Shown piece by piece: positions 23,414 through 58,854 of a stretch of DNA of 64,000 bases. Location of the stretch: contig PLNF01000025.1 of NCBI GenBank assembly GCA_003141715.1, positions 8,011 to 72,010 on the forward strand, written 5' to 3'. Position numbers and translations under genes: made by a program. Below the pieces are notes generated by a model. It was not told the DNA's origin and made no database searches. It saw only the letters and a list, made by a program, of their open reading frames with translations. Within the stretch, counting starts at the first letter, position 1; each line of letters opens with the position of its first letter. The stretch is from Bacteroidales bacterium (GTDB lineage Bacteria; Bacteroidota; Bacteroidia; Bacteroidales; VadinHA17).

Positions 23414-23420
23414 TATTTCT

Positions 23421-40871: not shown

Positions 40872-41645
40872 CTATTGATTTATGTATAGATTAATAATCT
40901 CATTATTTATTTGATACAACAGAACTTTTCCTCTTTGCGGTATTGCTACACTCAAGAAATGATTCGACAGGTTGGTCGAATAAATAAAATGGTCATCGAA
41001 TAAACAATCAGCAATCAGATTATCAAACACTTCCCTTCTAATAATATTTTCCAGTACCTCAACTTGCTTTAGATTGTCTATTATTCCAGTTCCAAGAGCC
41101 TTCAATAGAGCTTCTTTTCGTGTCCATAGAAGGAAAAACCTGTCTAAAGCCTCAGCTTTCGATTCTAAAATATACTCTCGCTCACAGGAACTGAAATATG
41201 TTTCTATTATAGAAGTGAAATCAATTATTTTACTTACTTTTTCTAGATCAATTCCTACATAATGGTTATTGGAAACCACAAATGCAAATGCCCCCTTAGT
41301 ATGAGAAATATTAAAGTATAAAGGATTACCCAACAAAGCTGGTTTGTTGTACAATTCGTTAAAGAATCTGACTTCCAAAGGTTCTTTATTTAGCGTCTTT
41401 GAAAGAACCAAACGAAGTAAAGCATGACAGGATATATAAGTCTCCATATCTTCTTCAAAATGAAATCTTTCTGCTCTTAATTGTTCCTCTTTAGTGATAT
41501 AATTTTTAAAATCGGGATATCTTGAATTAAGGTCTTTAGTTTTGGCATAAAACACCTCAACTATATTGGAGTCATCCTCTGAAATCATCTTATATCCTGA
41601 ATCAAAATAATAACGACTACAACTTGATCCTGAAATTATTTGCAT
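40872..41645 (-). CDS. Sfp-type 4'-phosphopantetheinyl transferase
   Basis: FNISHTKG, GIDLEK and FFLLWTRKEALLKALGTG (WxxKEAxxK) motifs. Confidence 0.85.
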   Translation of the reverse strand: MQIISGSSCSRYYFDSGYKMISEDDSNIVEVFYAKTKDLNSRYPDFKNYITKEEQLRAERFHFEEDMETYISCHALLRLVLSKTLNKEPLEVRFFNELYNKPALLGNPLYFNISHTKGAFAFVVSNNHYVGIDLEKVSKIIDFTSIIETYFSSCEREYILESKAEALDRFFLLWTRKEALLKALGTGIIDNLKQVEVLENIIRREVFDNLIADCLFDDHFIYSTNLSNHFLSVAIPQRGKVLLYQINNEIINLYINQ

Positions 41646-42956: not shown

Positions 42957-45900
42957 TTATAGTTCTCCTGTGACGATTTTAGTATCAGTTTTGTTTTCTT
43001 TATTAACGGATTTGTTTTCAATAGAATTTTTGATATAAATATCTATAGTTTCAGCCAGATCTTTAATCCTAGGGTTGTCAAAGAAAATTCTAAGTCCCAG
43101 TTCAACATTTAATGCTGACTTAATCTTAGAAAAAACCGAAATAGCAAGAAGTGAATTGCCTCCGATGTCAAAAAAATTATCTGTTACTGAGAAATCGTCT
43201 GTTTTTAAAACCTCGTTCCAAATTTTAAAAACTCTATATTCAGTCTGGCTAAGTGTCTTTATTTCCTCATTTTTTCTACTTTCCAGATCCTTTAAATCGA
43301 AAATAAGGGCATTTCTGTCAATCTTACCGTTGATTGTCTTAGGGAATCCATGCATGTATTTATATGCCAACGGCACCATATATGGAGGGAGCTTGTCTCT
43401 TACCCTTTTGATTATCTCTTTTGTTCCCATTTTAAATGATTCAGGCACATTTAAAAAAGCAATCAGCCTGTAATCTCCTTCTTCAACTTTTACAGATTTA
43501 ATAACTGTTTCTATTACCCCGTCTATCTCCGATATGACAGATTCTATCTCCTCCAGCTCTACCCGGAAGCCCCTTATTTTCAATTGATTGTCAATCCTTC
43601 CATGAAACTCAATGTTACCATCCGGAAGCCATTTCGCATAGTCGCCAGTCCGGTAAAGTCTTTCTCCCGGTAATTGCGGATGATCTATGAAACTCTTCTT
43701 ATTCAGGTCATCTCTGTTTATGTATCCTTTTGATAAACCATCGCCTCCGATATATAATTCCCCTATAACTCCAATGGGCTGATAATTCATATTATTATCA
43801 AAAATATAACACGTGGAATTGCTTATGGGTCTACCGATCGGAATATTGTGATCTAAATCTTTTTCAATCAGGTAGGCTGTTGAGAAGGTTGTGTTTTCGG
43901 TAGGCCCGTAACCGTTGATAACCTTCAACCCCGGATTAGCCTTCCTGACTTTGTTTATATGAGGGGCAGATAAAACATCTCCGCCTACAAGCAAATACTT
44001 CAAGTTGCCAAATATATCAGTTCCCGACTCTGCCAGGTGCGTAAATAGAGCAGATGTCAGCCAAAGGATTGTAATATCATTTTTTACAAGCGCTTCTCCT
44101 AATGCTCCCGGATTAAGAATAGTCTCTTTTTCAGCCATAAATAATGACCCTCCATTTAAAAGCGCTCCCCAAATCTCAAATGTCGATGCATCAAATACTA
44201 TTGCACTTGTCAACAAAATTTTATCCTCCGGAGTAATGTCAATATAGTTAGTATTTCGTACAAGCCTGACAATACTATGCTGGCATATCATGCTCCCTTT
44301 TGGATTTCCGGTAGTTCCTGATGTGTACATTATATATCCCAGATCTGATGACCTGTTGATATTCCCGGGGTTTGATACCTCTTCAGTATCAGAACCCGCA
44401 TCGTTCAGGCTTAATTTCGTAACACCATCTAAACAAATGCCAATGCATTTGTCCTGGGCGAGCAGTACTTTACATCCCGAATCCTTAATAATGAAATTGA
44501 TTCTCAGTGAAGGATAATCAGGATCAATAGGCACATAAACTCCTCCGGCTTTCAGAATGCCAAGGATACCCACTATTACATCCAAAGACTTTTCTGCGAG
44601 AATCCCTACCGGTGTATTCCTTCCGACTCCAACCTTCATCAGATTAAGGGCCAATTGATTTGCTTTATAATTTAATTGTTTATAGGTCAGCAATTCTTCT
44701 TTAAAGACCACTGCTGTCTTATCAGGAAATTCATCAACCTGCTCTTCGAACAGCTGGATAATTGTTTTATCTTTTGGATAGGCTGTATGTGTATTGTTAA
44801 AACCATCGATTATAAATTTCTCTCCATCAGAAATCAGAGGAAGTGATTCAATAGCGACATCATAATTTTCGAAAATGTTACGAATAAGAGTAAGAAAGTT
44901 TTCTTTCAGCCTGATTATTGTTTCCGGTTTTAAAATATCAATATTAAATTTAATCTCACCTTGAATTTTATCCCCGCTTTCCCACATATAGAAAATAATA
45001 TCAAAGGGAGTAACATCGTCAGCCAAAGTAATTCTTTCACCTTTAATGTTTCCGAAATCTATTGGTATAATCATATCGTTAAGCCATGACAATGAGACCT
45101 GAAAAATAGGATTTATACCGGAAATCCGATCAGGATTTACAACCTCAACAATTCTCTCAAAAGGGAGTTTTGAATTTAATATTGTATTTCTTACAACATT
45201 CTTTGTATAATTAACATGATCTTTAAACTTATTTTTGGTTTCAATCTTTAATCTGACCACTGCAGTGTTTAAAAATAAGCCAAATATTTTATCAAGGGAA
45301 GGATGAGTTCGACGGTTTGAAACAGGGATACCAATACAAATATCATTCTCCCCGGAATATTTCTGTAACAATACCCCCACTAAAGATACCATAGTGCTAA
45401 AAAGCGTAGAACCCTGGTTTTTACTAAGTTCTTTTAGTTTGAGAGTGTATTCCTTCGAAATTTCAAAAGATTGCCGGAATCCAAACCCTGTTGGATCGTT
45501 TTTCCTGTGATAATCGTAGGGAAATTTTAATTCCGGCTGACACCCTTTCAAATTATCTTTCCAGAATTCAATCAGCTCTTTTTCGTTTTCGTCAGAAAAT
45601 GATCTGTTTTCTACCTGTGCATAATTGTAACTATGAAACTTCAGTGGTTCAGGCTTATAATCAGCATTCAGAATCAGATTATTATATATTGTGCTTAATT
45701 CCTGCACGAAAACCCGGATTGACCATCCATCAAATATTATATGATGAATTGTTGCATGAAAATAATAGTTTGTTTCATCATCCTTTAATAAGTAAAGACG
45801 ATAGAGCGGACCATTTTCAACATCAAAACATCTTCTTGAATCTTTTCCTGCAAAGGAAAGAATCGCCTCTCTTCTTAAATTAACCGGGAAACCGGAAAAA

Positions 45901-46175
45901 TCAATTAATTCAACGGTTACAGGTCCGGGAATTATATCAATATATGGCTCTCCCTCTTTCTGTCTGAATACCGAAAACATAGTATGTTGCCTGTTAAATA
46001 AAAGGCTCATGCTCTTTTCAAAAATATCCAAATTAATTTCGATCTTAAAATGATACGTCAATACCATATTATAGGCAGGATTTGTATTATCCAGCTGTGA
46101 TATTATCCATAACTTTTTTTGATTTGCCATCAATGGCAAACCTCGTTGAACCGATGGATGCGTTTTTTTATTCAT
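42957..46175 (-). CDS. NRPS module C-A-T (A-domain code DAFWLGGTFK, Val-like)
   Basis: C: LPLMANQKKLW and HHIIFDGWS. A: YTSGTTGNPKG, FDAS, NGYGPTENT, YRTGDYAKW, KIRGFRVELEEIE, PKTINGKIDR. T: FFDIGGNSLLAI (Ser at 43152-43154). Approximate domains: C 44860-46130, A 43300-44800, T 43040-43250. Confidence 0.95.
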   Translation of the reverse strand: MNKKTHPSVQRGLPLMANQKKLWIISQLDNTNPAYNMVLTYHFKIEINLDIFEKSMSLLFNRQHTMFSVFRQKEGEPYIDIIPGPVTVELIDFSGFPVNLRREAILSFAGKDSRRCFDVENGPLYRLYLLKDDETNYYFHATIHHIIFDGWSIRVFVQELSTIYNNLILNADYKPEPLKFHSYNYAQVENRSFSDENEKELIEFWKDNLKGCQPELKFPYDYHRKNDPTGFGFRQSFEISKEYTLKLKELSKNQGSTLFSTMVSLVGVLLQKYSGENDICIGIPVSNRRTHPSLDKIFGLFLNTAVVRLKIETKNKFKDHVNYTKNVVRNTILNSKLPFERIVEVVNPDRISGINPIFQVSLSWLNDMIIPIDFGNIKGERITLADDVTPFDIIFYMWESGDKIQGEIKFNIDILKPETIIRLKENFLTLIRNIFENYDVAIESLPLISDGEKFIIDGFNNTHTAYPKDKTIIQLFEEQVDEFPDKTAVVFKEELLTYKQLNYKANQLALNLMKVGVGRNTPVGILAEKSLDVIVGILGILKAGGVYVPIDPDYPSLRINFIIKDSGCKVLLAQDKCIGICLDGVTKLSLNDAGSDTEEVSNPGNINRSSDLGYIMYTSGTTGNPKGSMICQHSIVRLVRNTNYIDITPEDKILLTSAIVFDASTFEIWGALLNGGSLFMAEKETILNPGALGEALVKNDITILWLTSALFTHLAESGTDIFGNLKYLLVGGDVLSAPHINKVRKANPGLKVINGYGPTENTTFSTAYLIEKDLDHNIPIGRPISNSTCYIFDNNMNYQPIGVIGELYIGGDGLSKGYINRDDLNKKSFIDHPQLPGERLYRTGDYAKWLPDGNIEFHGRIDNQLKIRGFRVELEEIESVISEIDGVIETVIKSVKVEEGDYRLIAFLNVPESFKMGTKEIIKRVRDKLPPYMVPLAYKYMHGFPKTINGKIDRNALIFDLKDLESRKNEEIKTLSQTEYRVFKIWNEVLKTDDFSVTDNFFDIGGNSLLAISVFSKIKSALNVELGLRIFFDNPRIKDLAETIDIYIKNSIENKSVNKENKTDTKIVTGEL

Positions 46176-46201: not shown

Positions 46202-49200
46202 CTAAATCTCGCCTATAACTAATTTAGACTCTGGTTTAGTTGGTTTATCCACAGATTTCTGTTTTACAGATTTCTTTACTGAAATATCAATGGCCTCAGC
46301 AAGATCCTTTATCCTCGGGCTGTCAAAGAAAACTCTTAGTCCCAAATCAATATTAAATGCAGATTCAATCTTTGAAAATACAGCTATTGCCAGAAGCGAA
46401 TTGCCACCACTCTCAAAAAAATTGTCTGTAACTGTAATATCTTCAGTCTTTAGTGTTTCGCTCCATATTTTAAAAATTACCTTTTCTGTGGGTGTCAAAG
46501 CTTCTATTTCATCACTTCCTGTTTTTCCCAATTCATTAATTTGAAAAATAAGAGATTTCCTGTCAATTTTTCCGTTACTTGTTTTTGGGAACTCCTTCAT
46601 TATGTTATAAAATGTTGGGATCATATATGAAGGTAGTTTTTCCTTCAGGCGCCTGTTGAGCTCTTTTGTATCGATATTGAAATCATCTGATACGTTAAGA
46701 AATGCCACCAACCGGTGATCATTCTCATCAAATTTATGAACTATTACCACAGCTTCTTTAACATCCTGGACCTGAGTCAGCAAACTTTCAATTTCCCCTG
46801 GTTCTATCCTGAATCCTCTTAACTTGATCTGATTGTCGCTCCTGCCAAAAAGCTCTACATTCCCGTCAATCAGAAATCTACCCAGGTCACCGGTCTTGTA
46901 GATAATCTGTTTATTTTCGAGTGTGATGAATTTTTCTGCAGTCAGATCCGGTCGGTTAATATAACCCTTTGTCACACCCAGACCTCCGATACAGACCTCT
47001 CCAATAACACCAACAGGAAGTTGATTATTATTTTTATCCAGGATATAAATGGAAGTATTATTAACCGGTCTTCCGATAAGAATTGGTGCATCAGGATCTA
47101 TGACCTTAGTATATACAGAATAGACAGTTGTCTCAGTAGGTCCATAGCAATTCCAGAATTCATTAACCTTTGGAAGTATCTGTCGTACAAGAACTGATGT
47201 CAATGCTTCTCCCCCGCACAACGCTTTAAGGTCATCTTTGCCCTGCCATCCGCCTGAAAGCAGAATATTCCAGAATGAAGGAGTTGCCTGAATGACTGTA
47301 ATATTATGCTTTTTAATCAGGTCAGTTAAGGCTGGACCATCTGTTGTCTCGCCGGACTTTGCAATGACTATTGTTGCTCCTGCTGACAAAGGAACAAAAA
47401 GTTCAAAAACAGACATGTCGAAAGATAAAGTTACAACTGCCAGAAGTATGTCATTCTCTTTTATACCAGGCTCCTTCAACATGCTTTCAATCAGGTTTAC
47501 AACTGCAGCGTGATGAACTTTAACTCCTTTAGGTTTACCTGTTGAACCCGATGTGTAAATAGTATATGCATTGGATTTCGGACTCAGAATAAGCTCAGGT
47601 TTCACAGTACTATATTTCCTGATTTTCCCCCGATCTGTATCTATAAAGACAATTGGCGTTTTAAACATTCGGGTTTTCTCCATCAGCGAACTCTGTGTAA
47701 TCAGAGCTCTGGCTCCCGAATCTTCAAACATAAAAGTTATTCTGTCATCAGGAAATGAAGGATCCATGGGCAGATAGCTGCATCCTGCTTTTAATACGCC
47801 AAGTACAGAAATTACCATTTCAACTGAACGTTCAATACATATCCCTATGATGTCTCCCTCAGTTGCCCCGAGTGAGATCAGATAACCGGCAAGCTGATTA
47901 GCCTGATCATTCAACTCTTTGTAAGTCAGACTTGAATCGCCGGATATAACTGCCTTCTTTGATGGGTGAATTACCGACTGCTGCTCAAAGAAACTCTGGA
48001 CCAGACAATCAGTAACCGGTACATTGGTTCTGTTAAATTCTTCAAGTTTAGTTCTATCATTATCTGAGATTATTGATATTTCAGATATTCTCTGGTCAGG
48101 GTTTTCTATTACACTTTTCAACAGGAAGACAAAATTTTCTTTTAACCGGATTATGAATTCCCGATCAAATAAATCTGAATTAAATTCCAGCTCACCCTCA
48201 ACGATTCCATCATTGTCCCATGCATAAAAAGTCATATCAAATGGAGCAACTGTATCTTTAATAAGTATTCTTTCAGGCATTATTCCCTCTAAATTAAGAG
48301 GAGGGCGCGGTGTATTCTGATAGGCAAAAAGAATCTGGGAAATCGGATTCACATTAATTTTTCGTTCAGGCTGCAGGGTTTCAACCAGCTTCTCAAATGG
48401 CAGATCCTGGTGAGCAAGACCCTCAATTGTTATATTCCTTGTATAATGCAAGAGCTCTTTAAAAGTCAGGGAATTATCAAAACGCAAACGTAGGATTATT
48501 GTGTTTACGAATAATCCTATAATCTCTTCTGTATCAGAATTGACCCTGTTGGCAGTTGGAATGCCAATACAAATATCGTTATCACCGGAATATTTATTCA
48601 GAAGCAAGCTAAAACCGGCTAATAATGTCATAAAAACTGTCGAGTTCTCTCTTTGACTTATCTCTCTGATTTTACCAGAGAAATCTAAGGTCATCCTCAA
48701 AGGTTCTCTGCTTCCAAAACCGGTGGGTCTTTTGGTTCTTGAATAACTGAATGGAAAATTAATTTCTGCAGGATGATCTTTAAGTTGTTTCTTCCAGTAA
48801 TCAATTGAAGTTTTGAAAGAATCTTCGGTAATATTTGATTCCTGCCAGTTAGCTATATCATAATATTGATATTTAAGAGGTATAAGGTCAATTTCACGGT
48901 TGTTAAGCAGGTCATTATATATCTGACGTAATTCGCCGGCAAAGATACCCCACGACCACCCGTCAAAAACCATATGCTGAACAGTCATATGAAAAACAGA
49001 CTCATTATCACTGATTTTTACCAGGTAGAAGCGGAACAAAGGACCATTTTCTATGTCAAAGATATTTCTTGATTCGCCTGTAAAAAAATCCTGTATTTTT
49101 TGTTCGACTTCTTCAGAAGCATAAGAGCTATAGTCCAGAAAAGTAATAGGCAAGGTTTCAAAATTATTAATCAGACAATATGGTTCTCCTTCATGTGATT

Positions 49201-52200
49201 GAATTGAGCTTTTCAGGATGGTTTGTCTGTCTAATAAAAGTTTCAGGCTCTTTATAAAAATCTCAACATTAAGGTTACCTTTTAATCGGTATGTAAATGG
49301 AATGTTATATGCCGGATTATTCCTGTCAATCTGATTCAGGATCCATAACCGTTTCTGATCAAAGCTTACAGGTAACCGGCCGTCAGGCGACATAGATATG
49401 ATATCCGGGGTATCCTGTTTTACCGGCTTTTCTGATTCAATTTTCCTGATCAATCCACTTATTGTGGAAGATTCAAATAAAGATTCAAGAGGTAAACGGA
49501 CATGAAATTTTTCGCTGATACGGGTTATTATCTGTGAAGCCAATAATGAATGACCACCCAGATAGAAAAAATCATCATTGATGCCAATTCCTTTTATGCC
49601 AAGAAGATTCTCCCATATTCCTGCTATCGATTTTTCAATATCTGTTTTGGGTTCAACGTATTCTTCGTCCATAGAAGGCCGGTCGTGAAATGAGAGATAC
49701 TTCCCATCATATTTTTGTTCATCAGAGTCTGTACCTGATAAAACTGGTTTTATTTCCTGTATTCTTTCGGAGGATTCATTGAAATAATTAAAGGGAGTTT
49801 CAGGATCGATCCAGTGTCTTTTTCTTTCGAACGGATAAGAAGGTAATGGTACCCGGTATCTTTTTTCACCTTTATAATAATTATCCCAGTTGATATTTAC
49901 ACCGGAAATCCAGGCTTGTCCCAGAGCTTTTAGAAATACCGGTATATCATTCAGTTTCTTTTTCGGATGGCGTGTGGTTGATGAAATATTAATCCTTTTT
50001 CCGGAAGTATCATATTGAGATAAAAGAGTTGCAAGCATGTTTCCGGGGCCCACCTCGATAAAATAGACATTGGCTTCTTTAAGGAGTTCCTGAATCCCAT
50101 CAACGAAATTGACGGTTGCTCTGATCTGATCAGTCCAATACTGAGCATTTGAGAGTTCTCCGTTCACTGCCCATGTTCCAGTTAAATTTGAAATAAAGGG
50201 TATTCTGCTTTCGCCAAATTTAATCTTCTTAAGAATTTCACTAAAGGGTCCTAATACAGGTTCCATCATATAACTATGGAATGCATGAGAGGTTTTAAGC
50301 CTTGATAAATGAATATCAGGATATTGAGCAATTATCTTTTTTTCTGCCTCTTCAATATCCTGAAATTCACCTGATAATACATTAAGATCAGGAGCATTCT
50401 TTAATGATAGATTAACTTTTTCAGAAACAAAAGGGGATAATTCATTGCATGATAACTGAACGGAAAGCATTGCTCCCGGCTTTTGTTCCTGCATTAATTT
50501 CCCCCTGTGGGCAACAAGGGTCAATGCGTCTTCAAAATCAAAGATCTCCGAAATACATGCGGCAGCGTATTCCCCAATACTGTGGCCAATCAATACATCA
50601 GGCTTCAGACCAAATTCTTCCAGTAACCTGGCAATGGCATACTGGACCGTAAACAATAAAGGCTGTGCAACAGATGTCTGATTTATTTCGTTTTGTAAAG
50701 AATCATCATTATCCTGAAGAATATACTTTAAAATTTCAATACTAAAATTCGCTTTAAGAAAGACATCGGCTTTGTCTATAATGTCCCTGAATAAAGAAAA
50801 TTCATTATATAAATCTCTTGTCATTCCGATATACTGGGAACCCTGCCCTGTAAACATAAAGACTACCCTTGGATTGAATAATTCCCGGATACCGGTGATC
50901 TCAGTATCTTTCATCAAAAGGGGAATACTTTTATCAGATTCCGTTTTGCAGATCAGAAGAGAACGATGTTTGTAATGGCTTCTGCCTTGTTGAAGTGTAA
51001 AAGAAATATCTGCAATATCCTGATCAGTATCCAAAACATGGTGATAAATGCTCTGCTTAAGATTTTTTAAAGCATCAGGGGTTTTAGCCGTGACAGGCAG
51101 AAGATGATATTTTTTTCCTGAAGCCTCTTTAACTCTTACCGGAGCTTCCTCAAGTATGCAATGAGCATTTGTACCTCCAATACCAAAGGAGCTGATCCCT
51201 GCACGTCTGGGACCCCGGGTTGTGGTCCATTCGCTAAGTGATGTATTTAAATAGAAAGGAGTATCATTCAGTGGAAGTTCAGGATTAGGCTTTTTAAAAT
51301 TCAGGAGTGGTACGAGCTTCTTGTTGTTAAGCATCAGTACAACCTTTATCACTCCGGCAACACCTGCGGCAGCATCGAGATGGCCGATATTTGCCTTAAC
51401 GCTTCCAAGTGCACAATAATTTCGCCGGGCAGAAGCATTTCTAAAGACAGAATTCAGAGCATTGACTTCGATAGGGTCTCCCAGTTTAGTACCTGTTCCA
51501 TGTGTTTCGATATAAGAAATTGTGTCAGGTGCAATATTAGCTACGGCAATTGCTTTCCGGACGACAGCAGCCTGTCCGTTTATGGAAGGCGCCATATAAC
51601 CAACTTTATTTGATCCATCATTATTAATGGCAGTACCTTTTATCACACCCAATATTGTGTCACAATCACTGACAGCATCTTCCAGTCTTTTAAGAACAAC
51701 TACCCCTGATCCTTCACCGAATAAGGTACCATTCGCCTCACTGTCAAATGGTTTACAATGTCCGTCAGGAGAAAATATCCCTCCCGCCTCATACATATAA
51801 CCCTCAGCATGAGGTATTTGAATAAAAACACCGCCGGCCAAAGCCATATCACATGAACGGGAGATAAGGTTCTGACAGGCAATGTGAATAGCTACCAGAG
51901 AGGTCGAACATGCAGTCTGAATATCAATACTTGGACCGGTCAGGTTCAGCTTATAGGAAACCCTGGTGGTCAGATAATCGCTGTTGTTATTTATTATGGT
52001 CTGGAACTCACCAATTGATCTTAATGACTCAGGATGCTGGAAAAGATTCTTTGCCAGGTAATTATTCATACCGCAACCGGCAAAAACTCCAATTTCACCC
52101 GGATATTTCTCTGATGTGTAACCTGCATTCTCCAGAGCTTCATAGCACGATTCAAGAAATACACGATGCTGAGGGTCCATGAAATCGGCTTCCCTTGGGG

Positions 52201-55200
52201 TTACACCAAAAAAAGATGAATCAAACTGATCGGCATTCTCTAAATTGCCATTGGCTAATACATAATTATCATTTTCGAGCAGAGCTTTATCGACACCCTT
52301 CTTTAACAATTCCTCCTTCGTGTAATATGTTATTGCCTCTTTCCCTGAAGAAATAATTTTCCAGTAATCTTCAGTGCTCTTTACTCCTGAAAACCTCCCG
52401 GTCATCCCTATAATTGCGATATCTTTTACCGCACGTCTGTTATCATCTGAATTTGTACTGATATCAGGAACAGGTTTTTCAGTTTTACTTTCGCCATCGA
52501 TAAAAGCCGCTAATTCTCTGACTGTTGGAAACTGGAAGATATCAACAATATTTATCTGAATATTAAACTGTCTGAAAAGTTTGATCACAATTTGGGGAAT
52601 CAACACAGAATGGCCCCCAATGTCGAAGAAGTTGTCAGTATTATTGAAATTGTCACTTTTTAATATTTGCTGCCAGACTGACATAACATTCTTTTCTGTC
52701 TGCTTATATCTTTGGTCAGGTACCAGATCAGATGCAGACCTTATCACAAGATTTTTATTCAGCTCAGCGATAATTTTATCAAGAGTAAGAAATTTTTCAA
52801 GTATCAGATAATAAAAGTCATTCCTGTTCTGATTTTTTGTGAGTCCGACTGAATCTTTTGTTTTTTCATCTTCAGAAAATTCCTGATTTGAAATATTACT
52901 ATCCGGATCAAAAGTAAATCCGATTGCTCTTTCTACCGGAATATTAAAAATCTGAATCTCATTGCTATAGTGACCAAAATCACCAAAATTTGAATTAATA
53001 AAATTCTCTGCCGGAGTATTTTTATCAGTTTTTCTGAAACTAACTGTCAGGTAAACTGAATTATTCAGTCTGGCCTTTTCACCCAGGAAGGATATAAGAA
53101 AATGTTCCACTCCTTTTCCCAGTACACGGCAACTTAGCAGGAATGTCTCAACTGAATATCCAGATGATTTATTGACAATTATCACACCGGTAAGACCATA
53201 ATCTCCAAACCGGTCAGAAAGGGTAACCTGAAAACAATCAACATTTTTGTCAAATGAGAGATTCTTAATCTCACTTTCGCTTTTCCTTAAAGTTGTAAAA
53301 TTGAATTGATTTGTTCTGTATGTTAACTGAGATATTCGGGATATATTTCCATCCTGAAATGGCTTTATTTCTACCTTTAAATTTAATCCTGTAATAAAAT
53401 CTTTATATGTTTTAAATGAGGATCTGAAGTTTATGCGTACAGCTTCTTCCCTGTACTTCTCCGATCTTTTCCTGTCCTCATCGGTAATTCTCAGCTTATC
53501 GAAAATCCAGGAATTGTTTAGCTGCTTTATATTAATCCCATCTTCGGGTAACTGTATTGTAAGAACTTCTGGCGTATTGTTCCTCACCTCTGCACATTCC
53601 ATCGGATTGTCATCAATGAAGACAAAACTATCAAGGCCGATATTAATGTCTTTAGCCAGCTGAATAAGGTTTTCAGATTTTGGATTCCAGTTAATTTTAT
53701 AAAAAGACAGATGTTCTCTTTTCAAAACCATCTGATCATTCTTATCAAATACTTCAAATACATCCTCTTCCCTGTTTTTACTGCACAGACATATCAGTAT
53801 CCCGGATTTATTTTGTTCAATCAGAAATTCCTGTAAAGCCTTCTCTCCCGGACCAACCTTAACTCCTGTTGGTCCTTCTTCTGCAACAACACCTTTCCAA
53901 AGAGTATTATCGCAATCAACTGCAATCGCTTTGAAAGGTAAACTAAAAGAAAGATGAATTTTCCTTGCTATAATTGTTGAGAGTGATATGAAAAAATTAT
54001 CTGAGAAGGGTATATGTCCTATCTCTTCCCCCAATTCCTCATAATAATCATGAATATCATAAGTATCTAGGAGCTCACCCGAATTTAACACCAGGATATT
54101 TGATTTTGATTTTAGAATTGACGTTAACCTGTTCTCAGCTTCAGCAATAATTTCAGATAAGATTGGATTCTTCAGAATTCCCGGTGACGGAGGACAAAAT
54201 GCCAGAATGTACTTTCCTTGTGTATTTAGCTGAATAGCCACAGAAAAAGCATCTTCAATCTCATCAACCTTTTTACTAAAATCTGAAATGGAACCCTCGG
54301 AATTTTTATCTTTTATCCAATCTTCAAACCGAATGAGAAGGATATTGTATCCACTGATATTTGAATTAAATTCACTTCCCGGATTCAGCAATTGAGAGAA
54401 GACCTGGTTGTATCCAGGAAAAGTTATTAAGGGAGTAACACCAAATTTCTTAAGCCAGAATTCTAAATATGGTTCTACAGGTTCTACAGTGAAGGTTCCT
54501 GTAATATTGATATTAAGCAACGGTTTTTCCGGCTTCAACGGGTTCTCATCTGATAACCAGGATGGTTTAAAGCTGAGATCGTTAATAATCAGATCAAGAA
54601 TCCTTAAAAACTCATCTTTAAAGAGATTAATGCTATCATTATCAAAGAGATCACTATTAAATTTTAAAGCACATAAAAGTTTACTCTCATCATCGACTAT
54701 TTCCAGTGTCAGGTCTACTTGTCCCTCCTGATCAAAAATCTTATAAGGTTTAATAAAAACTGAACCCCATGATGAATATTCTGTGGTCTCAGAATCACCC
54801 AGAAAATGCAACAGACAACCAAGAGATTTTTTATTTAAGTAATTAAAGATTACCTGGAAAATTGGTGTCCGTGAAAGATCTCTTTTAGGAGAAATCTTCT
54901 CCACAATAATCGGGAATGGAATATCCTGATTTTCAAGACTTTCATAAAGCCGGATTTTGTTTTCATTCAAAAAATCAATAAATGATTCCTGGCTTCTAAT
55001 GGAGCACGCTAAGGGAAGCATGTTAATTAAATACCCAAATATATCTTCGAAGATTTTGTTTGTCCTTGCCGCTGCAGGTAATCCAACGCAGAAATCTCCC
55101 TGTCCGGATATTTTAGATATAAAAAACTCAAATGCTGAAAACAGGAGTACATTAAATGTAACGTTATTATTTTTTGCTATCGACCACAGATTATGAAACA

Positions 55201-56068
55201 TCTCACCTTCGATTTTAAACAGGAGAGTACTTCCGTTAAACTGATGTACTGAAGGTCTTTTAAACTTAGCAGGCAGATTAAGGGTATGAGATCTGCCATG
55301 AAGTTGGTTCACCCAGTAATCTATCTGACTTTCCCCTTTTTCACTATTTAAGAATTCTATCTGATCGAAAATAAAATTGTTATAGTCTGAGGCAGGAGAG
55401 ATTTTTAAAATATTTGTGTTTTGAATTAAAGAATCATAAATATTTATAAACTCATTCAACAAATTCCGCAGTGAAATTGCATCACAGGTAATATGGTGAA
55501 AATTGAAACTCAGGATAGCTGAATCGGATTTATTGACAATAGTTAATCTTAAGAGAGGGCCATTCTCAAGGTCAAATGGCAGCCTATATTTCTTATTTAA
55601 CAAGATCTTTATTTGCTCATCACTAAGTTTTAATCCATCGATCTGTTCGATAGCCGGACTAATTTTGTCTAAAACTATCTGACAAACAGTATTATCGATT
55701 CCCGGAAGAACAGCAAATATTGTCCTTAAAGACTGGTGTTGTTCTATGAGAGATGAAAGAGTAATCCTCAAGGCATCAATATTTAAAGTACCCTGTACCT
55801 CTGCTGCCAATGAAATATTATATGAAACATTTGAGGGATTTACAGCCCCGATAAACCATATTGCTTTTTGATTATGTGCAAGAGGCAATACTTTAATCTT
55901 TTTTGACTTAGTATTCCTTAAAATCTCTTTGAAAAAGTCCTTGTTTGACTTTAAAAAATCAGTTTTTGAGGAATCCAGTTCTTTCTCCTCAACTCTGTAC
56001 TTTAATACATCATCATCTATCCAGAGCTCTAAGTGCTTTGGAAAGAAAGAATCAAAATCTTTTTTCAT
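46202..56068 (-). CDS. hybrid NRPS-PKS megasynthase: dock-C-FkbH-T-KS-AT-T-C-A-T
   Basis: See the domain features below. The ATG at 56066-56068 forms an ATGA overlap with the stop of the upstream MT-ACP gene. The track's TTG at 56086 is less likely. Confidence 0.95.
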   Translation of the reverse strand: MKKDFDSFFPKHLELWIDDDVLKYRVEEKELDSSKTDFLKSNKDFFKEILRNTKSKKIKVLPLAHNQKAIWFIGAVNPSNVSYNISLAAEVQGTLNIDALRITLSSLIEQHQSLRTIFAVLPGIDNTVCQIVLDKISPAIEQIDGLKLSDEQIKILLNKKYRLPFDLENGPLLRLTIVNKSDSAILSFNFHHITCDAISLRNLLNEFINIYDSLIQNTNILKISPASDYNNFIFDQIEFLNSEKGESQIDYWVNQLHGRSHTLNLPAKFKRPSVHQFNGSTLLFKIEGEMFHNLWSIAKNNNVTFNVLLFSAFEFFISKISGQGDFCVGLPAAARTNKIFEDIFGYLINMLPLACSIRSQESFIDFLNENKIRLYESLENQDIPFPIIVEKISPKRDLSRTPIFQVIFNYLNKKSLGCLLHFLGDSETTEYSSWGSVFIKPYKIFDQEGQVDLTLEIVDDESKLLCALKFNSDLFDNDSINLFKDEFLRILDLIINDLSFKPSWLSDENPLKPEKPLLNINITGTFTVEPVEPYLEFWLKKFGVTPLITFPGYNQVFSQLLNPGSEFNSNISGYNILLIRFEDWIKDKNSEGSISDFSKKVDEIEDAFSVAIQLNTQGKYILAFCPPSPGILKNPILSEIIAEAENRLTSILKSKSNILVLNSGELLDTYDIHDYYEELGEEIGHIPFSDNFFISLSTIIARKIHLSFSLPFKAIAVDCDNTLWKGVVAEEGPTGVKVGPGEKALQEFLIEQNKSGILICLCSKNREEDVFEVFDKNDQMVLKREHLSFYKINWNPKSENLIQLAKDINIGLDSFVFIDDNPMECAEVRNNTPEVLTIQLPEDGINIKQLNNSWIFDKLRITDEDRKRSEKYREEAVRINFRSSFKTYKDFITGLNLKVEIKPFQDGNISRISQLTYRTNQFNFTTLRKSESEIKNLSFDKNVDCFQVTLSDRFGDYGLTGVIIVNKSSGYSVETFLLSCRVLGKGVEHFLISFLGEKARLNNSVYLTVSFRKTDKNTPAENFINSNFGDFGHYSNEIQIFNIPVERAIGFTFDPDSNISNQEFSEDEKTKDSVGLTKNQNRNDFYYLILEKFLTLDKIIAELNKNLVIRSASDLVPDQRYKQTEKNVMSVWQQILKSDNFNNTDNFFDIGGHSVLIPQIVIKLFRQFNIQINIVDIFQFPTVRELAAFIDGESKTEKPVPDISTNSDDNRRAVKDIAIIGMTGRFSGVKSTEDYWKIISSGKEAITYYTKEELLKKGVDKALLENDNYVLANGNLENADQFDSSFFGVTPREADFMDPQHRVFLESCYEALENAGYTSEKYPGEIGVFAGCGMNNYLAKNLFQHPESLRSIGEFQTIINNNSDYLTTRVSYKLNLTGPSIDIQTACSTSLVAIHIACQNLISRSCDMALAGGVFIQIPHAEGYMYEAGGIFSPDGHCKPFDSEANGTLFGEGSGVVVLKRLEDAVSDCDTILGVIKGTAINNDGSNKVGYMAPSINGQAAVVRKAIAVANIAPDTISYIETHGTGTKLGDPIEVNALNSVFRNASARRNYCALGSVKANIGHLDAAAGVAGVIKVVLMLNNKKLVPLLNFKKPNPELPLNDTPFYLNTSLSEWTTTRGPRRAGISSFGIGGTNAHCILEEAPVRVKEASGKKYHLLPVTAKTPDALKNLKQSIYHHVLDTDQDIADISFTLQQGRSHYKHRSLLICKTESDKSIPLLMKDTEITGIRELFNPRVVFMFTGQGSQYIGMTRDLYNEFSLFRDIIDKADVFLKANFSIEILKYILQDNDDSLQNEINQTSVAQPLLFTVQYAIARLLEEFGLKPDVLIGHSIGEYAAACISEIFDFEDALTLVAHRGKLMQEQKPGAMLSVQLSCNELSPFVSEKVNLSLKNAPDLNVLSGEFQDIEEAEKKIIAQYPDIHLSRLKTSHAFHSYMMEPVLGPFSEILKKIKFGESRIPFISNLTGTWAVNGELSNAQYWTDQIRATVNFVDGIQELLKEANVYFIEVGPGNMLATLLSQYDTSGKRINISSTTRHPKKKLNDIPVFLKALGQAWISGVNINWDNYYKGEKRYRVPLPSYPFERKRHWIDPETPFNYFNESSERIQEIKPVLSGTDSDEQKYDGKYLSFHDRPSMDEEYVEPKTDIEKSIAGIWENLLGIKGIGINDDFFYLGGHSLLASQIITRISEKFHVRLPLESLFESSTISGLIRKIESEKPVKQDTPDIISMSPDGRLPVSFDQKRLWILNQIDRNNPAYNIPFTYRLKGNLNVEIFIKSLKLLLDRQTILKSSIQSHEGEPYCLINNFETLPITFLDYSSYASEEVEQKIQDFFTGESRNIFDIENGPLFRFYLVKISDNESVFHMTVQHMVFDGWSWGIFAGELRQIYNDLLNNREIDLIPLKYQYYDIANWQESNITEDSFKTSIDYWKKQLKDHPAEINFPFSYSRTKRPTGFGSREPLRMTLDFSGKIREISQRENSTVFMTLLAGFSLLLNKYSGDNDICIGIPTANRVNSDTEEIIGLFVNTIILRLRFDNSLTFKELLHYTRNITIEGLAHQDLPFEKLVETLQPERKINVNPISQILFAYQNTPRPPLNLEGIMPERILIKDTVAPFDMTFYAWDNDGIVEGELEFNSDLFDREFIIRLKENFVFLLKSVIENPDQRISEISIISDNDRTKLEEFNRTNVPVTDCLVQSFFEQQSVIHPSKKAVISGDSSLTYKELNDQANQLAGYLISLGATEGDIIGICIERSVEMVISVLGVLKAGCSYLPMDPSFPDDRITFMFEDSGARALITQSSLMEKTRMFKTPIVFIDTDRGKIRKYSTVKPELILSPKSNAYTIYTSGSTGKPKGVKVHHAAVVNLIESMLKEPGIKENDILLAVVTLSFDMSVFELFVPLSAGATIVIAKSGETTDGPALTDLIKKHNITVIQATPSFWNILLSGGWQGKDDLKALCGGEALTSVLVRQILPKVNEFWNCYGPTETTVYSVYTKVIDPDAPILIGRPVNNTSIYILDKNNNQLPVGVIGEVCIGGLGVTKGYINRPDLTAEKFITLENKQIIYKTGDLGRFLIDGNVELFGRSDNQIKLRGFRIEPGEIESLLTQVQDVKEAVVIVHKFDENDHRLVAFLNVSDDFNIDTKELNRRLKEKLPSYMIPTFYNIMKEFPKTSNGKIDRKSLIFQINELGKTGSDEIEALTPTEKVIFKIWSETLKTEDITVTDNFFESGGNSLLAIAVFSKIESAFNIDLGLRVFFDSPRIKDLAEAIDISVKKSVKQKSVDKPTKPESKLVIGEI
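46290..46500 (-). other. megasynthase carrier domain T3
   Basis: FFESGGNSLLAI, Ser at 46397-46399. Confidence 0.85.
46560..48040 (-). other. megasynthase adenylation domain (code DMFQLGCVYK by hand alignment)
   Basis: YTSGSTGKPKG, FDMSVFE, NCYGPTETT, YKTGDLGRF, KLRGFRIEPGEIE, PKTSNGKIDR. Confidence 0.9.
48060..49380 (-). other. megasynthase domain C2 (LCL-like condensation)
   Basis: LPVSFDQKRLWILNQ and QHMVFDGWSWG. Confidence 0.85.
49440..49640 (-). other. megasynthase carrier domain T2
   Basis: FFYLGGHSLLAS, Ser at 49547-49549. Follows the AT directly, with no KR/DH/ER between. Confidence 0.85.
50000..50870 (-). other. megasynthase acyltransferase (AT), malonyl-type motifs
   Basis: FMFTGQGSQY. 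GHSIGEYAA (Ser at 50579-50581). SHAFHS (HAFH, not YASH). Confidence 0.9.
51141..52423 (-). other. megasynthase ketosynthase (KS), catalytic C-H-H intact
   Basis: DIAIIGMTGRF. DIQTACSTSL (Cys at 51908-51910). ETHGTGTKLGDPIE. KANIGHLDAAAG. GGTNAHCILEE. Confidence 0.95.
52500..52700 (-). other. megasynthase carrier domain T1
   Basis: FFDIGGHSVL, Ser codon at 52607-52609. Confidence 0.85.
52980..54515 (-). other. megasynthase FkbH-like domain (HAD-IIIC phosphatase + glyceryl-S-Cys transfer region)
   Basis: DxDxT motif AVDCDNTLWKG (DCDNT at 53903-53917). LLSCRVLGKGVEHF with Cys at 53129-53131. Collinear with the stand-alone FkbH at 58835-60577. Confidence 0.85.
54590..55895 (-). other. megasynthase domain C1 (condensation, variant active site HHITCDAIS)
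   Basis: KVLPLAHNQKAIWF at about 55857-55895. HHITCD at 55481-55498 (Ala replaces the usual Gly of HHxxxDG). Confidence 0.8.
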
Positions 56069-57300
56069 AGTTTGCCCTCTAACCAATGACTGCCTGAATT
56101 ATTATCCGGACTTTTAGTCATATCTGTAGAGTTGGTGTTAAGTTTTTCTAAAATGAGTTTTATGATATCATTTATTGAAAATTTCTGCAGAATATCTGAA
56201 ATACTTATACCGGTTTGAAAATCAGATTTGACAATACTGCTTAACTCTGCAGCCGCAATAGAATCAATATCAAATAAATTTAGCTTTGTATCCGGGTTTA
56301 AATCCAAATTTTTCTGTTCCAATATCGAACTGACTCTTTTAATAAAATATGAGCTTAATTTAGCTTCCTGTTCTGAAGAAGTCAGTGACTTTATATCATC
56401 AATGTTCAGAGACAGGGTGTTTAATATTTGTAAATCATTTTCATCTACCTTAATATTTTCAACCACCGGGTTAAGACTCTTCATGCCACTAATCACAAAA
56501 AGTTGTCTGAAAATAACATGATCAGGCTGCTGAAACAATTTATACCAATTCTCAATTAAAGATTCGAGCGTTTCCTTTTTTAAGAATCCTTCTTTGACAA
56601 GGCTCTTGGATATATTGACATTTTCTGCTTTTACAAATGCTTTGTCACCTTCAAGGCCACTATGTACGCAAATGATTTCAATGTTTATGTTATCGAATTT
56701 TTCTTTTTTCAGAAGTCCCGGCAATTGTCTGCCGATTAATGGATTGCCTCCCTCACTAAATCTGGAATTGATATAAGCTGTGTACATCTCATCCAATTCC
56801 GGAATAGCCGGATAAGTTAATAAGTGGTAAGCAAAATCATTACTTATCAGGACAAATTTCCCTCCTGGTTTGAGAATCCTTCTGACTTCAGCTATTGCTT
56901 TGGCAGGTTCCTTAAGATGCTCAAAGACGAGGCGGGCAATAGCAAAATCATAATAATTTTCGGCCAATTCAGTCTCATATATTGAAGCATGTTTTACTTC
57001 AAACAGCTTTTTACCATTAATTGTAGAATTTTCCTTAAGTACCTCAACCAAAAAAGGATTTATCTCAAGGGCAGTAGCCGTACAATTGGGCAAATCTCTT
57101 ACAATATTGCTTATCAGAAATCCTGGTCCGCTGCCACATTCGACAATTTTCATCCCATCTTTTAGTCCAATCTTTTTATAAAGCTCCAATTCCCTTTGAT
57201 AAAAAAGCTCAACCTGATATTTTAACCGGGTTACTTCGGAGTCCTTATTTTCAGAAAAACTTTCTAAAATATAAGATCCATCTATTTTGTTCAAATTCAT
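56065..57300 (-). CDS. class I SAM-dependent methyltransferase fused to a C-terminal carrier (ACP-like) domain
   Basis: Motif I is IVECGSGPGFL, followed by RILKPGGKFVLIS. The C-terminal 80 aa carry LNLFDIDSIAAAEL (Ser at 56260-56262). Confidence 0.75.
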   Translation of the reverse strand: MNLNKIDGSYILESFSENKDSEVTRLKYQVELFYQRELELYKKIGLKDGMKIVECGSGPGFLISNIVRDLPNCTATALEINPFLVEVLKENSTINGKKLFEVKHASIYETELAENYYDFAIARLVFEHLKEPAKAIAEVRRILKPGGKFVLISNDFAYHLLTYPAIPELDEMYTAYINSRFSEGGNPLIGRQLPGLLKKEKFDNINIEIICVHSGLEGDKAFVKAENVNISKSLVKEGFLKKETLESLIENWYKLFQQPDHVIFRQLFVISGMKSLNPVVENIKVDENDLQILNTLSLNIDDIKSLTSSEQEAKLSSYFIKRVSSILEQKNLDLNPDTKLNLFDIDSIAAAELSSIVKSDFQTGISISDILQKFSINDIIKLILEKLNTNSTDMTKSPDNNSGSHWLEGKL

Positions 57301-57350: not shown

Positions 57351-58172
57351 TCAATTATGTTTTTTTTTGGACTTTGAAAATAACCATGAGAATACATCAG
57401 GATCAGTATAAACATTTTTTTCAATATCGTGCCCTCCACCTTTTATGACAGTGAATTTTACTTCACCCCCGCATTTTGCAAGACTATCGGTCATTTCCTG
57501 TGTTTCTTTGTAACTATAGATCGGATCATTTTCTCCACTGAATGCCCAGATGTGGATATCTTTAACAAGATATGCATGAGACGGGTCAGAAGCGGCACAA
57601 ATCGGAATTGCCACTGTAAACAAGTCTGGGTTTCTGAGTATCAATTCCCATAATCCTGTTCCACCCATTGAATGCCCGATTATATAAATACGATCAGTAT
57701 CAATAGAATTTTCGCTTATAATCTTTTTTATTAAATCGCGGACAATTTCAAGAACCGGACTTGACGGTATTGAGTCCAGCGAAAAGTTATTAAAAGGTCT
57801 TTTGGGATTGATAGTCCATATTCTGTCTGAAGGACACTGTGGTATAAGAATAAAAGGAGAGTATTGTTTTCTTAACATTTGGATGAATTTCGCCTTTGTG
57901 TAATCGATATCGCTGATATTATCAGATCCTCTTCCTCCGGCTCCATGAAGTATTACTACCAGTGGTGCTTTTAAATTGTTTGCTGACTTAAATAACCTGT
58001 ACTTTACTGTTATCTCCTTTTTTTTAAACTCACCTTGCTCTGACTGGCTAACAATATGACCTATTCGAATTCTATTTATTCCAGATTTAAAAATAGGTTT
58101 CCCTTTGATTAAGAAATAGCAGCCCAGCACAATAACAATACATAAAATAATATATGAGATTTTAATTTGCAT
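57351..58172 (-). CDS. exported alpha/beta-hydrolase (esterase/lipase-like), signal-anchor or lipoprotein-like N-terminus
   Basis: MQIKISYIILCIVIVLGCY N-terminus. HGAGGRGSDN. Nucleophile elbow IIGHSMGGTG. C-terminal GGGHD. Confidence 0.7.
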   Translation of the reverse strand: MQIKISYIILCIVIVLGCYFLIKGKPIFKSGINRIRIGHIVSQSEQGEFKKKEITVKYRLFKSANNLKAPLVVILHGAGGRGSDNISDIDYTKAKFIQMLRKQYSPFILIPQCPSDRIWTINPKRPFNNFSLDSIPSSPVLEIVRDLIKKIISENSIDTDRIYIIGHSMGGTGLWELILRNPDLFTVAIPICAASDPSHAYLVKDIHIWAFSGENDPIYSYKETQEMTDSLAKCGGEVKFTVIKGGGHDIEKNVYTDPDVFSWLFSKSKKKHN

Positions 58173-58588: not shown

Positions 58589-58605
58589 CTCCGGGTTTTA
58601 AAATA

Positions 58606-58854
58606 TTATAGTAATCTCGATAAAACTGAATTTATAATTTCTCCTGCATTGGTCCAGCTTTGGATCTCTTTTGATGTAAATCTAATTTTATAGTGCTTTT
58701 CTAATGCTACCACAAGATGAATGTGAATTAATGAATCCCAACCCTCCACATCGTTTTGAGTCGTTTTTTCATCTATACGGATTTCTTCATTATCAAGTAA
58801 CTCCACAAAGATTTTATTAAGTTGTTCCAATATATCAATTCTGTTCAAATCCAT
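58606..58854 (-). CDS. discrete acyl carrier protein
   Basis: 82 aa. DVEGWDSLIHIHLV with Ser at 58732-58734. The start overlaps the FkbH 3' end by 20 nt. Confidence 0.75.
   Translation of the reverse strand: MDLNRIDILEQLNKIFVELLDNEEIRIDEKTTQNDVEGWDSLIHIHLVVALEKHYKIRFTSKEIQSWTNAGEIINSVLSRLL

Follow-up and report, generated by a model that had tools for sequence, protein, structure and literature searches.

How does a synthase use glycerate as a building block when a condensation domain stands directly before the domain that loads it, and which protein supplies that condensation domain with an acyl group? These questions are raised by a megasynthase gene in a 64,000-nucleotide stretch of DNA from a Bacteroidales bacterium (GenBank assembly GCA_003141715.1, contig PLNF01000025.1, positions 8,011 to 72,010), the whole of which is referred to here as the window. 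The gene encodes a hybrid of nonribosomal peptide synthetase (NRPS) and polyketide synthase (PKS) with an embedded FkbH unit. NRPS-PKS assembly lines are uncommon in Bacteroidales, we know of no product for this synthase family, and literature searches on FkbH together with NRPS of Bacteroidetes found nothing. In the reading that we consider probable, though with moderate confidence, the gene belongs to a hybrid assembly line whose second module is a glycerate-esterifying module of the vioprolide type, primed by a separately encoded methyltransferase-carrier protein.

An intact megasynthase with an in-line FkbH unit

The region 46202..56086 on the minus strand is one open reading frame without interruption, and the probable ATG start codon at 56068 yields a gene (46205-56068) for a protein of 3288 amino acids. 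Profile searches of the translation against Pfam and NCBIfam gave the order dock-C-FkbH-T-KS-AT-T-C-A-T (C, condensation; T, carrier; KS, ketosynthase; AT, acyltransferase; A, adenylation domain) and no match in the megasynthase to the ketoreductase (KR), dehydratase (DH), enoylreductase (ER), epimerization (E) or thioesterase (TE) families. The C and T domains are numbered here from the N-terminus. Domain order, FkbH, KS and AT assignments and the lack of KR, DH, ER, E and TE domains had all been read from the letters alone in a first-pass annotation and are borne out by the profiles, and when the motif coordinates were re-derived from the sequence, those given earlier for DCDNT, Cys980, HHITCD, GHSIGE, HAFH and the KS triad each proved exact (Table 1). 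That annotation had also made its case depend on 52980-54515 being a HAD-IIIC/FkbH enzyme. This is the case: the core scores 287.7 bits against TIGR01686 (cut-off 146.65), with residues 713-1025 covering profile positions 4-315 of 323. The structure of BF1531 (PDB 3SLR) matches the HAD core with 98.7 bits, and residues D718, D720, T722 and C980 are invariant in our FkbH alignment (A2). The preceding stretch between C1 and the HAD core (residues ~520-712) corresponds to the FkbH N-terminal domain by alignment with other FkbH proteins; the Pfam family FkbH_N gave no score on the megasynthase copy.

The KS-AT-T portion has the features of a cis-AT, type I, non-reducing PKS module, i.e., an intact KS triad, GHSxG and HAFH motifs in the AT and a carrier, with no KR, DH or ER. 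According to the HAFH/YASH rule, HAFH marks malonyl-selective AT domains, and this is the basis of the malonyl assignment made here. The serine motifs (GGHS/GGNS) of the three T domains start at residues 1151, 2171 and 3221. At its N-terminus the protein resembles the TubC_N docking domain. This N-terminus itself receives no Pfam score for PF18563 and the likeness was recognized via aligned homologues; it is 48-71% identical to the N-termini of the corresponding proteins from loci L001, L007, L008 and L087 (L and P numbers denote loci and proteins in our comparison).

A product of identical length, 3288 amino acids, is called on the independent metagenome contigs L003-L006. The megasynthase gene is therefore real and intact, and neither an assembly artefact nor a pseudogene. 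The adjacent gene for an acyl carrier protein (ACP) was found on contigs of 14 assemblies. The genomes that came closest in a scan, at 71% identity that of an uncultured Rikenellaceae bacterium and at 65% that of Bacteroidetes bacterium GWA2_40_15, place the organism in the Bacteroidales, as do Por_Secre_tail proteins encoded in the window.

A methyltransferase-carrier protein as candidate acyl donor

The first-pass annotation left out the donor for C1, and the gene for a candidate adjoins the megasynthase start codon. It encodes a class I S-adenosylmethionine (SAM) methyltransferase (MT) followed by a carrier domain. The stop codon of this MT-T gene overlaps the ATG of the megasynthase gene by 4 nt (ATGA), as it also does in L001, L003, L008, L085 and L087, and ten loci (L001, L002, L007, L008, L010, L014, L016, L019, L037 and L087) have MT-T immediately upstream of C-FkbH-T. 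Two of these, L008 and L087, are minimal clusters with MT-T and C-FkbH-T but without any other NRPS protein, that of L008 comprising an esterase, MT-T, the megasynthase, a TE, a phosphopantetheinyl transferase (PPTase) and a transporter. Moreover, an exhaustive HMMER search uncovered single chains of ~1600 amino acids with the order MT-T-C-FkbH-T (P0245, P0246 and P0264), which share 39-41% identity with the MT-T of the window and 34-38% identity with its C-FkbH-T part over ~1170 amino acids. In two of them (P0245 and P0264) a short plain linker replaces the C-terminal tail of MT-T and the dock of the megasynthase. MT-T and C1 are thus linked by position and by fusion. Because such single chains exist, we propose that the MT-T carrier is the acyl donor for C1, and regard the fusions as the strongest evidence. 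Judged by the 4-nt overlap, the conserved adjacency and the fusions, MT-T would take the place that FAAL-ACP (FAAL, fatty acyl-AMP ligase) occupies before C-FkbH-T modules described previously.

In 22 homologues of MT-T, the serine of the carrier and the glycines that bind SAM are invariant. MT-T ends in ...HWLEGKL (family consensus WxEGEL), a tail that falls into one class with the KIIEGEI, KLVIGEI and KIVTGEL tails of the NRPS proteins and the megasynthase. Members of the family have 400-430 amino acids and, when clustered at 90% identity, fall into at least 196 groups. They also occur beyond FkbH: MT-T stands ahead of a KS-AT-T-C... protein in L086 and of a dock-C-AT-C-A-T protein in Desulfoluna spongiiphila (L085), and it is fused N-terminally to C-A-T, C-AT, trans-AT-style KS-DH-KR-T-KS and KS-DH (P0241, P0247, P0253, P0255 and P0262). 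In all contexts found it is the first protein or the N-terminal part, so that MT-T appears to be a general loading unit at the start of assembly lines. A published description of this fused methyltransferase-carrier loading form was not found. As a side observation, in L085 (11272-16581) and in P0247 a C domain is paired with an AT directly after MT-T, in place of an A domain or FkbH, which suggests another non-amino-acid acceptor unit.

What MT-T carries can be narrowed down in part. AT is the only loading enzyme common to the contexts, which suggests that the carrier is charged with malonyl. There is a precedent for methylation of such a unit in aurantinin biosynthesis, where the UbiE-like class I methyltransferase Art28 O-methylates malonyl-ACP at the first carrier and, as the last step, the methyl group is taken off by the membrane esterase Art9, a strategy seen in 13 clusters and reported to be widespread (PMC8302727). 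In keeping with this precedent, an esterase gene adjoins that for MT-T in the window and in L008. We give a methyl-ester starter, i.e., O-methyl malonyl, a chance just short of even, the remainder falling to C-methylation or another role.

The best-surviving alternative concerns this step. The enzyme could methylate glycerate, giving O-methylglycerate as proposed for the loading of suomilide and dysinosin, or it could be a C-methyltransferase that yields a methylmalonyl or dimethylmalonyl unit or, with decarboxylation, a short acyl starter. We consider this unlikely, albeit worth keeping in mind: FkbH has been proposed to cooperate with methylation in the suomilide Mgs unit, and the MT of the window resembles class I enzymes in a generic way only, which is compatible with more than one regiochemistry. 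Since, however, the same MT-T also precedes KS, C-A and C-AT modules without FkbH, its substrate should reside on its own carrier and be independent of FkbH, which argues against glycerate. As to C-methylation, AprA and CurJ, which are C-methyltransferases of PKSs, and malonyl-ACP C-methyltransferases were not among the top structural matches (the top 50 Foldseek matches of the AlphaFold2 model of MT-T include no PKS C-methyltransferase), and a starter with a free carboxylate would be an unusual donor for KS and C domains alike. Searches of PDB sequences, NCBIfam, AlphaFold2 with Foldseek and exhaustive HMMER were all brought to bear on the assignment of the methyltransferase and none was decisive; the names of its standalone relatives were uninformative.

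Condensation domains directly before FkbH

A C domain placed directly before an embedded FkbH had been described in the first-pass annotation as an unrecognized arrangement. It is in fact published. Vioprolide biosynthesis employs a FAAL-ACP followed by C-FkbH-T, and an ester-forming C domain joins the fatty acid to glycerate, as is reported to have been shown in vitro by Auerbach et al. (2018; ACS Chem Biol 13:3123; via PMC8949500, PMC12397197, PMC8609519 and PMC10099666). The corramycin synthase has the same architecture, FAAL-ACP-C-HAD-T (PMC10099666), and in cystomanamide biosynthesis the internal module 4 is C-FkbH-PCP, PCP being a peptidyl carrier protein (PMC9581180). The arrangement is also widespread. 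We scanned one genome per species with a four-sequence alignment, which yielded 78 loci from more than ten phyla, and mapped their domains by tblastn. A C domain directly before FkbH was found in 65 cases, with hosts among Bacillota (Paenibacillus, Bacillus and metagenome-assembled genomes (MAGs) of Eubacteriales), Acidobacteriota, Chloroflexota, Myxococcota, Ignavibacteria, Bacteroidota (Cytophagales and Bacteroidales), Fibrobacterota and others. All 65 retain the catalytic second histidine and the aspartate of HHxxxD. The glycine after the catalytic aspartate is lost in 21 of these 65 C domains and in 5 of 90 associated with A domains, samples that are not independent. Note also that in the NRPSs of L025, L026, L034 and L035 (Eubacteriales MAGs and the metagenome chromosome OW818645) a 25-kb stretch contains two C-FkbH-T modules, alternating with C-A-T; the products are predicted to be depsipeptides with several glycerate units.

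In the window, C1 is likewise N-terminal to an in-line FkbH and carrier, and its HHxxxD motif is intact. Because a glyceryl thioester on T1 has no amine, C1 would have to form an ester. This had already been deduced in the first-pass annotation and agrees, by analogy, with the ester formation observed in vitro for the vioprolide C-FkbH-T module. The ester assignment is inferred from chemical necessity and precedent. In a neighbor-joining tree of C domains, which is crude and carries no support values, C1 falls into a clade of 15 members made up of C1 itself, 13 C domains from cassette loci and one A-associated C domain of L081. In the cassette loci concerned (L001, L002, L007, L008, L010-L012, L014-L016, L018, L019 and L037) C-FkbH-T is directly followed by KS-AT-T. 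Members of the clade display the motif HHI(I/T)CDA(I/V)S or HHIICDLWS. The motif HHITCDAIS of C1, which had been called a variant, was correctly read and located and keeps the catalytic histidine and aspartate; the label itself does not fit, since this motif is the norm in the clade.

The suggested placement of C1 among ester-forming, starter, LCL and DCL types could be achieved in part, through this tree and through matches to solved structures. C1 matches the LCL-type TycC PCP-C (2JGP) with 149 bits, the starter C domain of SrfAA with 68 bits and the ester-forming SgcC5 with 48 bits, and thus appears LCL-like by sequence. Outside its own cassette clade it is ~30% identical to other FkbH-associated C domains and to ordinary amide-forming C domains alike. 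A single universal clade of ester-forming domains was considered and rejected, as the FkbH-associated C domains split into ~12 neighbor-joining clades.

Proposed assembly line

Taken together, the following order of steps is proposed. MT-T would act as loading module, its carrier probably being malonylated by the only AT available, although this charging is putative. The methyltransferase would then methylate the carrier-bound unit, most likely by O-methylation to the malonyl methyl ester as by Art28, and MT-T would dock via its ...HWLEGKL tail on the N-terminal dock of the megasynthase. FkbH is predicted to dephosphorylate a phosphoglycerate and to load the glyceryl group onto T1 via Cys980, whereupon C1 would esterify a hydroxyl of glycerate with the starter acyl group. 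KS-AT-T would extend the chain with malonyl-CoA and leave the 3-keto group unreduced. Because the motifs of KS-AT-T are complete, the AT is of the malonyl type and reductive domains are lacking, the (acyl)glyceryl unit should become a 4,5-dioxygenated 3-oxopentanoyl thioester, matching the product deduced in the first-pass annotation. C2-A-T would add a small amino acid, probably glycine, the accessory NRPS proteins would contribute serine, valine and valine, and a docked free-standing TE would release the product. De-esterification and export of the product may fall to an extracytoplasmic esterase and a MOP-type transporter encoded nearby.

The amino acids were assigned from A-domain codes read by hand from motif anchors. 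The code of the megasynthase, DMFQLGCVYK, is nearest to the codes for glycine; DVWHFSLVDK in module 1 of NRPS1 presumably stands for serine, and DAFWLGGTFK, shared by module 2 of NRPS1 and by NRPS3, presumably for valine. The first C domain of NRPS1 is LCL-like with Txo1 and Txo2 as best PDB matches, so that NRPS1 would need an upstream donor and would not be an initiator. The last ~90 residues of the megasynthase, NRPS3 and NRPS1, comprising T domain and tail, are near-copies of each other (46205-46480, 42957-43230 and 60639-60910). These near-copies, together with the shared valine code of NRPS3 and NRPS1 module 2, point to a recent duplication of the terminal module. L008 and L087 lack both NRPS1 and NRPS3, which look like recent lineage-specific additions acting after T3. 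C2 of the megasynthase shares 71% identity with its counterpart in L008. The candidate docking partners are the tails HWLEGKL, KIIEGEI, KLVIGEI and KIVTGEL on the one side and, beside the megasynthase dock, the N-terminus of the TE on the other, which matches PF18563. For relatives with a single NRPS module, a tetramate-type Dieckmann release from the 3-ketoacyl-aminoacyl thioester is conceivable, a speculation on our part.

In principle, gene order could be taken literally. In such a strictly collinear pathway, NRPS1 would deliver a peptidyl chain (Ser-Val-S-T) to C1, which would form a depsipeptide bond to glycerate, and MT-T would only tailor in trans. NRPS1 does lie upstream of the megasynthase on the same strand, its terminal T domain bears the tail ...KIIEGEI, which belongs to the class found on the other proteins, and module 4 of the cystomanamide synthase accepts a peptidyl donor. 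We nevertheless consider this improbable. NRPS1 is absent from the orthologous loci L007, L008 and L087, yet the dock in front of C1 is kept there; between NRPS1 and the megasynthase lie four genes, whereas MT-T overlaps the latter; NRPS1 opens with an LCL-type C domain that would itself call for a donor; MT-T-C-FkbH-T fusions exist; and the T domains and tails of the megasynthase and both NRPS proteins seem to stem from recent duplication of the TE-docking terminus. Least probable is that C1 is a starter-type, lipo-initiating domain which, as in vioprolide biosynthesis but without FAAL, O-acylates glycerate with a fatty acyl-CoA or acyl-ACP of primary metabolism while MT-T serves another step, for although vioprolide and corramycin carry fatty acids on glycerate and L011, L012, L015 and L031 lack a neighboring MT-T, C1 resembles TycC (149 bits) far more than the starter domain of SrfAA (68 bits), with that of RzmA not among the matches, it has a protein-docking N-terminus, and the MT-T fusions and conserved adjacency favor a carrier-bound donor.

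Several observations weigh against the proposed assembly line. The methyltransferase reaches 35.4 bits against the BioC family TIGR02072 (cut-off 184.95), a match confined to the SAM-binding core, and the best Foldseek match of the AlphaFold2 model of MT-T (pLDDT 83.6) is an uncharacterised methyltransferase from Methanosarcina (3MGG). One of the standalone relatives sits in a non-PKS context. The cassette loci L011, L012, L015 and L031 show no MT-T within the fetched flanks. C1 groups with no experimentally verified ester-forming C domain, the match to SgcC5 amounting to just 48 bits. The predicted A-domain substrates derive from codes read and compared by hand, a weak basis, and four similar C-terminal tails face two visible docks, which leaves the order of the NRPS subunits ambiguous.

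Neighboring genes

The megasynthase gene lies on the minus strand in a closely packed array of genes that all point the same way (Table 1). The first-pass annotation had left out NRPS1 and NRPS3, the separate TE and the PPTase of this array, as well as another FkbH that is free-standing.

Table 1 Features of the megasynthase, its motifs and the surrounding gene array, with coordinates in the window.
Feature	Coordinates	Strand	Basis or remark
NRPS1, 3' part, runs off the window	60639..64000	-	full length 2119 aa in L003: C-A-T-C-A-T with predicted Ser and Val; tail ...KIIEGEI
Free-standing FkbH, 580 aa, second predicted glycerate loader	58835..60577	-	PF21211 FkbH_N; TIGR01686 288.4 bits
Free-standing ACP, 82 aa	58606..58854	-	PF00550
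VOC/glyoxalase-family protein, 127 aa	58205..58588	-	PF13669; weak methylmalonyl-CoA epimerase match
Alpha/beta-hydrolase, 273 aa, signal/lipobox-like N-terminus; candidate extracytoplasmic esterase	57351..58172	-	Abhydrolase_2, DLH, Peptidase_S9
MT-T, class I SAM methyltransferase and carrier, 411 aa	56065..57300	-	Methyltransf_11/25/31 and PP-binding/ACP_SdgA_C (Pfam)
N-terminal dock, residues 1-58, TubC_N-like	55895..56068	-	aligns with PF18563-annotated N-termini of P0005 and P0006
C1, residues 59-497	54578..55894	-	PF00668, 282.8 bits; HHITCD intact
HHITCD of C1	55481-55498	-	residues 191-196
FkbH unit, N-terminal domain (~520-712) and HAD-IIIC/FkbH core (713-1025)	52994..54511	-	TIGR01686; DCDNT, Cys980
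DCDNT	53903-53917	-	residues 718-722
Cys of SCRVLGKG	53129-53131	-	C980
T1, GGHS at residue 1151, Ser1154	52499..52711	-	PF00550
KS, residues 1215-1591, Cys-His-His triad	51296..52426	-	PF00109 and PF02801
KS Cys (DIQTACS)	51905-51925	-	motif search
KS His (HGTGT)	51488-51502	-	motif search
KS His (NIGH)	51380-51391	-	motif search
AT, residues 1736-2054, GHSIGE and HAFH, malonyl type	49907..50863	-	PF00698, 162.9 bits
GHSIGE of AT	50570-50587	-	motif search
HAFH of AT	50276-50287	-	motif search
T2, LGGHS, Ser2174 (serine motif at 2171)	49439..49651	-	PF00550
C2, residues 2231-2675, motif QHMVFDG	48044..49378	-	PF00668
A domain, residues 2694-3167, hand-read code DMFQLGCVYK	46568..47989	-	PF00501 and PF13193
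T3 (PF00550 at 3198-3260) and C-terminal docking tail ...KLVIGEI	46205..46477	-	Pfam; tail from translation
NRPS3, C-A-T with predicted Val, 1072 aa, tail ...KIVTGEL	42957..46175	-	Pfam; code DAFWLGGTFK
Free-standing TE with N-terminal TubC_N dock	41658..42584	-	PF00975 and PF18563
Sfp-type PPTase	40872..41645	-	PF01648 and PF22624
MOP/Wzx-like flippase or exporter; gene lies 6 nt downstream of that for the PPTase	39327..40865	-	weak MatE match

The 273-residue hydrolase also matches esterases of the polyhydroxybutyrate-depolymerase type. Among the other loci no conserved orthologue of it was seen, the sole match being a 41-residue fragment at the edge of L086. In L008, a BD-FAE esterase secreted by the type IX secretion system (T9SS) occupies its position next to MT-T; an esterase thus adjoins MT-T in the window and in L008, but not in every locus. 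In L008 a Polysacc_synt/MatE protein likewise follows the PPTase. Just past the right end of the window, L003 encodes a polytopic membrane protein of 506 amino acids (204-1724) between a family 2 glycosyltransferase gene and NRPS1, for which neither Pfam nor NCBIfam gave a match.

The genes for the free-standing FkbH, ACP and VOC protein lie side by side (58205-60577). This FkbH is a close homologue of BF1531 from Bacteroides fragilis (PDB 3SLR; E 1.5e-145, 489 bits) and belongs to a very large family of 573-residue proteins with ~70% identity, in which 8000 of 8000 scored candidates had E <= 1e-30. Six loci (L032, L033, L035, L038, L062 and L069) have a VOC domain homologous to that of the window (27-35% identity) within the C-FkbH-T module, placed between FkbH core and carrier, and the VOC domain therefore appears to be a recurrent partner of FkbH. 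Given the weak match to methylmalonyl-CoA epimerase, it might epimerise or isomerise an alpha-hydroxy thioester. As a separate observation, members of the family of this free-standing FkbH are found as FkbH-ACP sets next to MBOAT genes in Flavobacterium psychrotolerans and in a second genome, together with Acyl_transf_3 in L089 (8001-9970) and with an SGNH-type lipase in L090 (8001-12480). They resemble Dlt/AlgI-like systems of glycan O-acylation, which in this instance would use a glycerate-derived acyl group.

The array extends over ~38 kb of co-directional genes (25842-64000, minus strand) in which the NRPS-PKS genes are joined to a polysaccharide locus of the Wzx/Wzy type. Glycosyltransferase, pyruvyl-transferase, polymerase-like and nucleotide-sugar genes (FnlA/CapE-like, WecG) occupy ~14 kb past the MOP/Wzx-like transporter, and genes for Wza and Wzc follow on the plus strand (22634..25796) just beyond the polysaccharide locus. 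The window also encodes Por_Secre_tail proteins and, adjoining the gene for an initiating sugar transferase (7374-8825), a Fic/DOC-family protein (Fic_N, Fic, SoFic-like_C; 8887-10005) that is unrelated to the megasynthase. Polysaccharide genes surround the cluster in the window, L001 and L002, are absent from L087, and are replaced by PorP/OmpA/T9SS neighbors in L007, L008 and L015. The association is thus not a conserved feature, and a polysaccharide-linked product is kept only as an improbable reading.

A narrower form of this idea is prompted by short cassettes. L002 (13786-18489) and L010 (9974-18327, from a Draconibacterium) contain MT-T and C-FkbH-T-KS-AT-T with neither a TE nor an A domain, directly followed by a YdjC gene and near genes for sugar aminotransferases (DegT, in L002 also FdtA). 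L002 additionally has glycosyltransferase and Wzx genes and L010 a GNAT-like gene. MT-ACP, C-FkbH-T and KS-AT-T may form a conserved cassette, present in Bacteroidota, Fibrobacterota and Myxococcota MAGs, for a small methylated malonyl-O-glyceryl-acetate head group, and the short forms could acylate an amino sugar or a surface polysaccharide. The full-length form in the window lies among genes of the capsule/O-antigen type. We regard this as doubtful. If true, it would amount to an acyl decoration of a glycan made by an assembly line, and not to a free metabolite.

Significance and comparison with known systems

The assembly line proposed here, with MT-T as donor and C1 as ester-forming domain, overturns no rule, since the arrangement that drew attention is already published and widespread. 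Its interest lies in a cassette that would join esterification of glycerate by C-FkbH-T with modification of the starter by a methyltransferase at the first carrier, and in a methyltransferase-carrier didomain that appears to be a common loading module without prior description. The L008-type cluster, with MT-T, one megasynthase, a TE and a PPTase, is a compact target for heterologous expression, and the didomain a useful lead for genome mining.

VioA of vioprolide and ComK of corramycin biosynthesis share with the megasynthase a C domain directly upstream of an in-line FkbH/HAD unit and carrier. Both have FkbH load the glycerate, which the C domain O-acylates with a carrier-bound acyl group from the loading module before it, as we predict for the window, and in the corramycin pathway a hydrolase and a flippase-like exporter have likewise been proposed to mature an acylated precursor. 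They differ in the donor, which is a FAAL-ACP in those systems and here a methyltransferase-ACP, so that a short methylated, perhaps malonyl-derived, acyl group would replace the fatty acid; in the next module, C-A-T there and a non-reducing KS-AT-T here; and in the host, Myxococcota there and Bacteroidota here. The likeness described here is one of architecture. Module 4 of CymC in cystomanamide biosynthesis similarly has C-FkbH-PCP in the place of C-A-PCP and brings glyceric acid into the backbone. That module, however, is internal, with a peptidyl donor and an NRPS acceptor, whereas the module in the window is the second of its line and is followed by a PKS module.

In PKSs primed by FkbH, such as those for bryostatin (BryA), oocydin and oxazolomycin (OzmB) and the tetronate pathways, an FkbH-loaded glycerate unit is used by a KS. 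There, glycerate serves as a free starter or extender precursor and is not acylated by a C domain first. With the aurantinin system of Art28, Art10 and Art9, the window appears to share a class I methyltransferase at the first carrier, a predicted malonyl supply from a trans or neighboring AT, and an esterase encoded nearby. In the window, however, the methyltransferase is fused to its carrier and the acceptor domain is a C domain, predicted to form the ester to glycerate, instead of a KS. What is particular to the window is thus the combination, in a member of the Bacteroidales, of a vioprolide-type module that has a putative methyltransferase-carrier loader in place of FAAL-ACP with a non-reducing PKS module following it.

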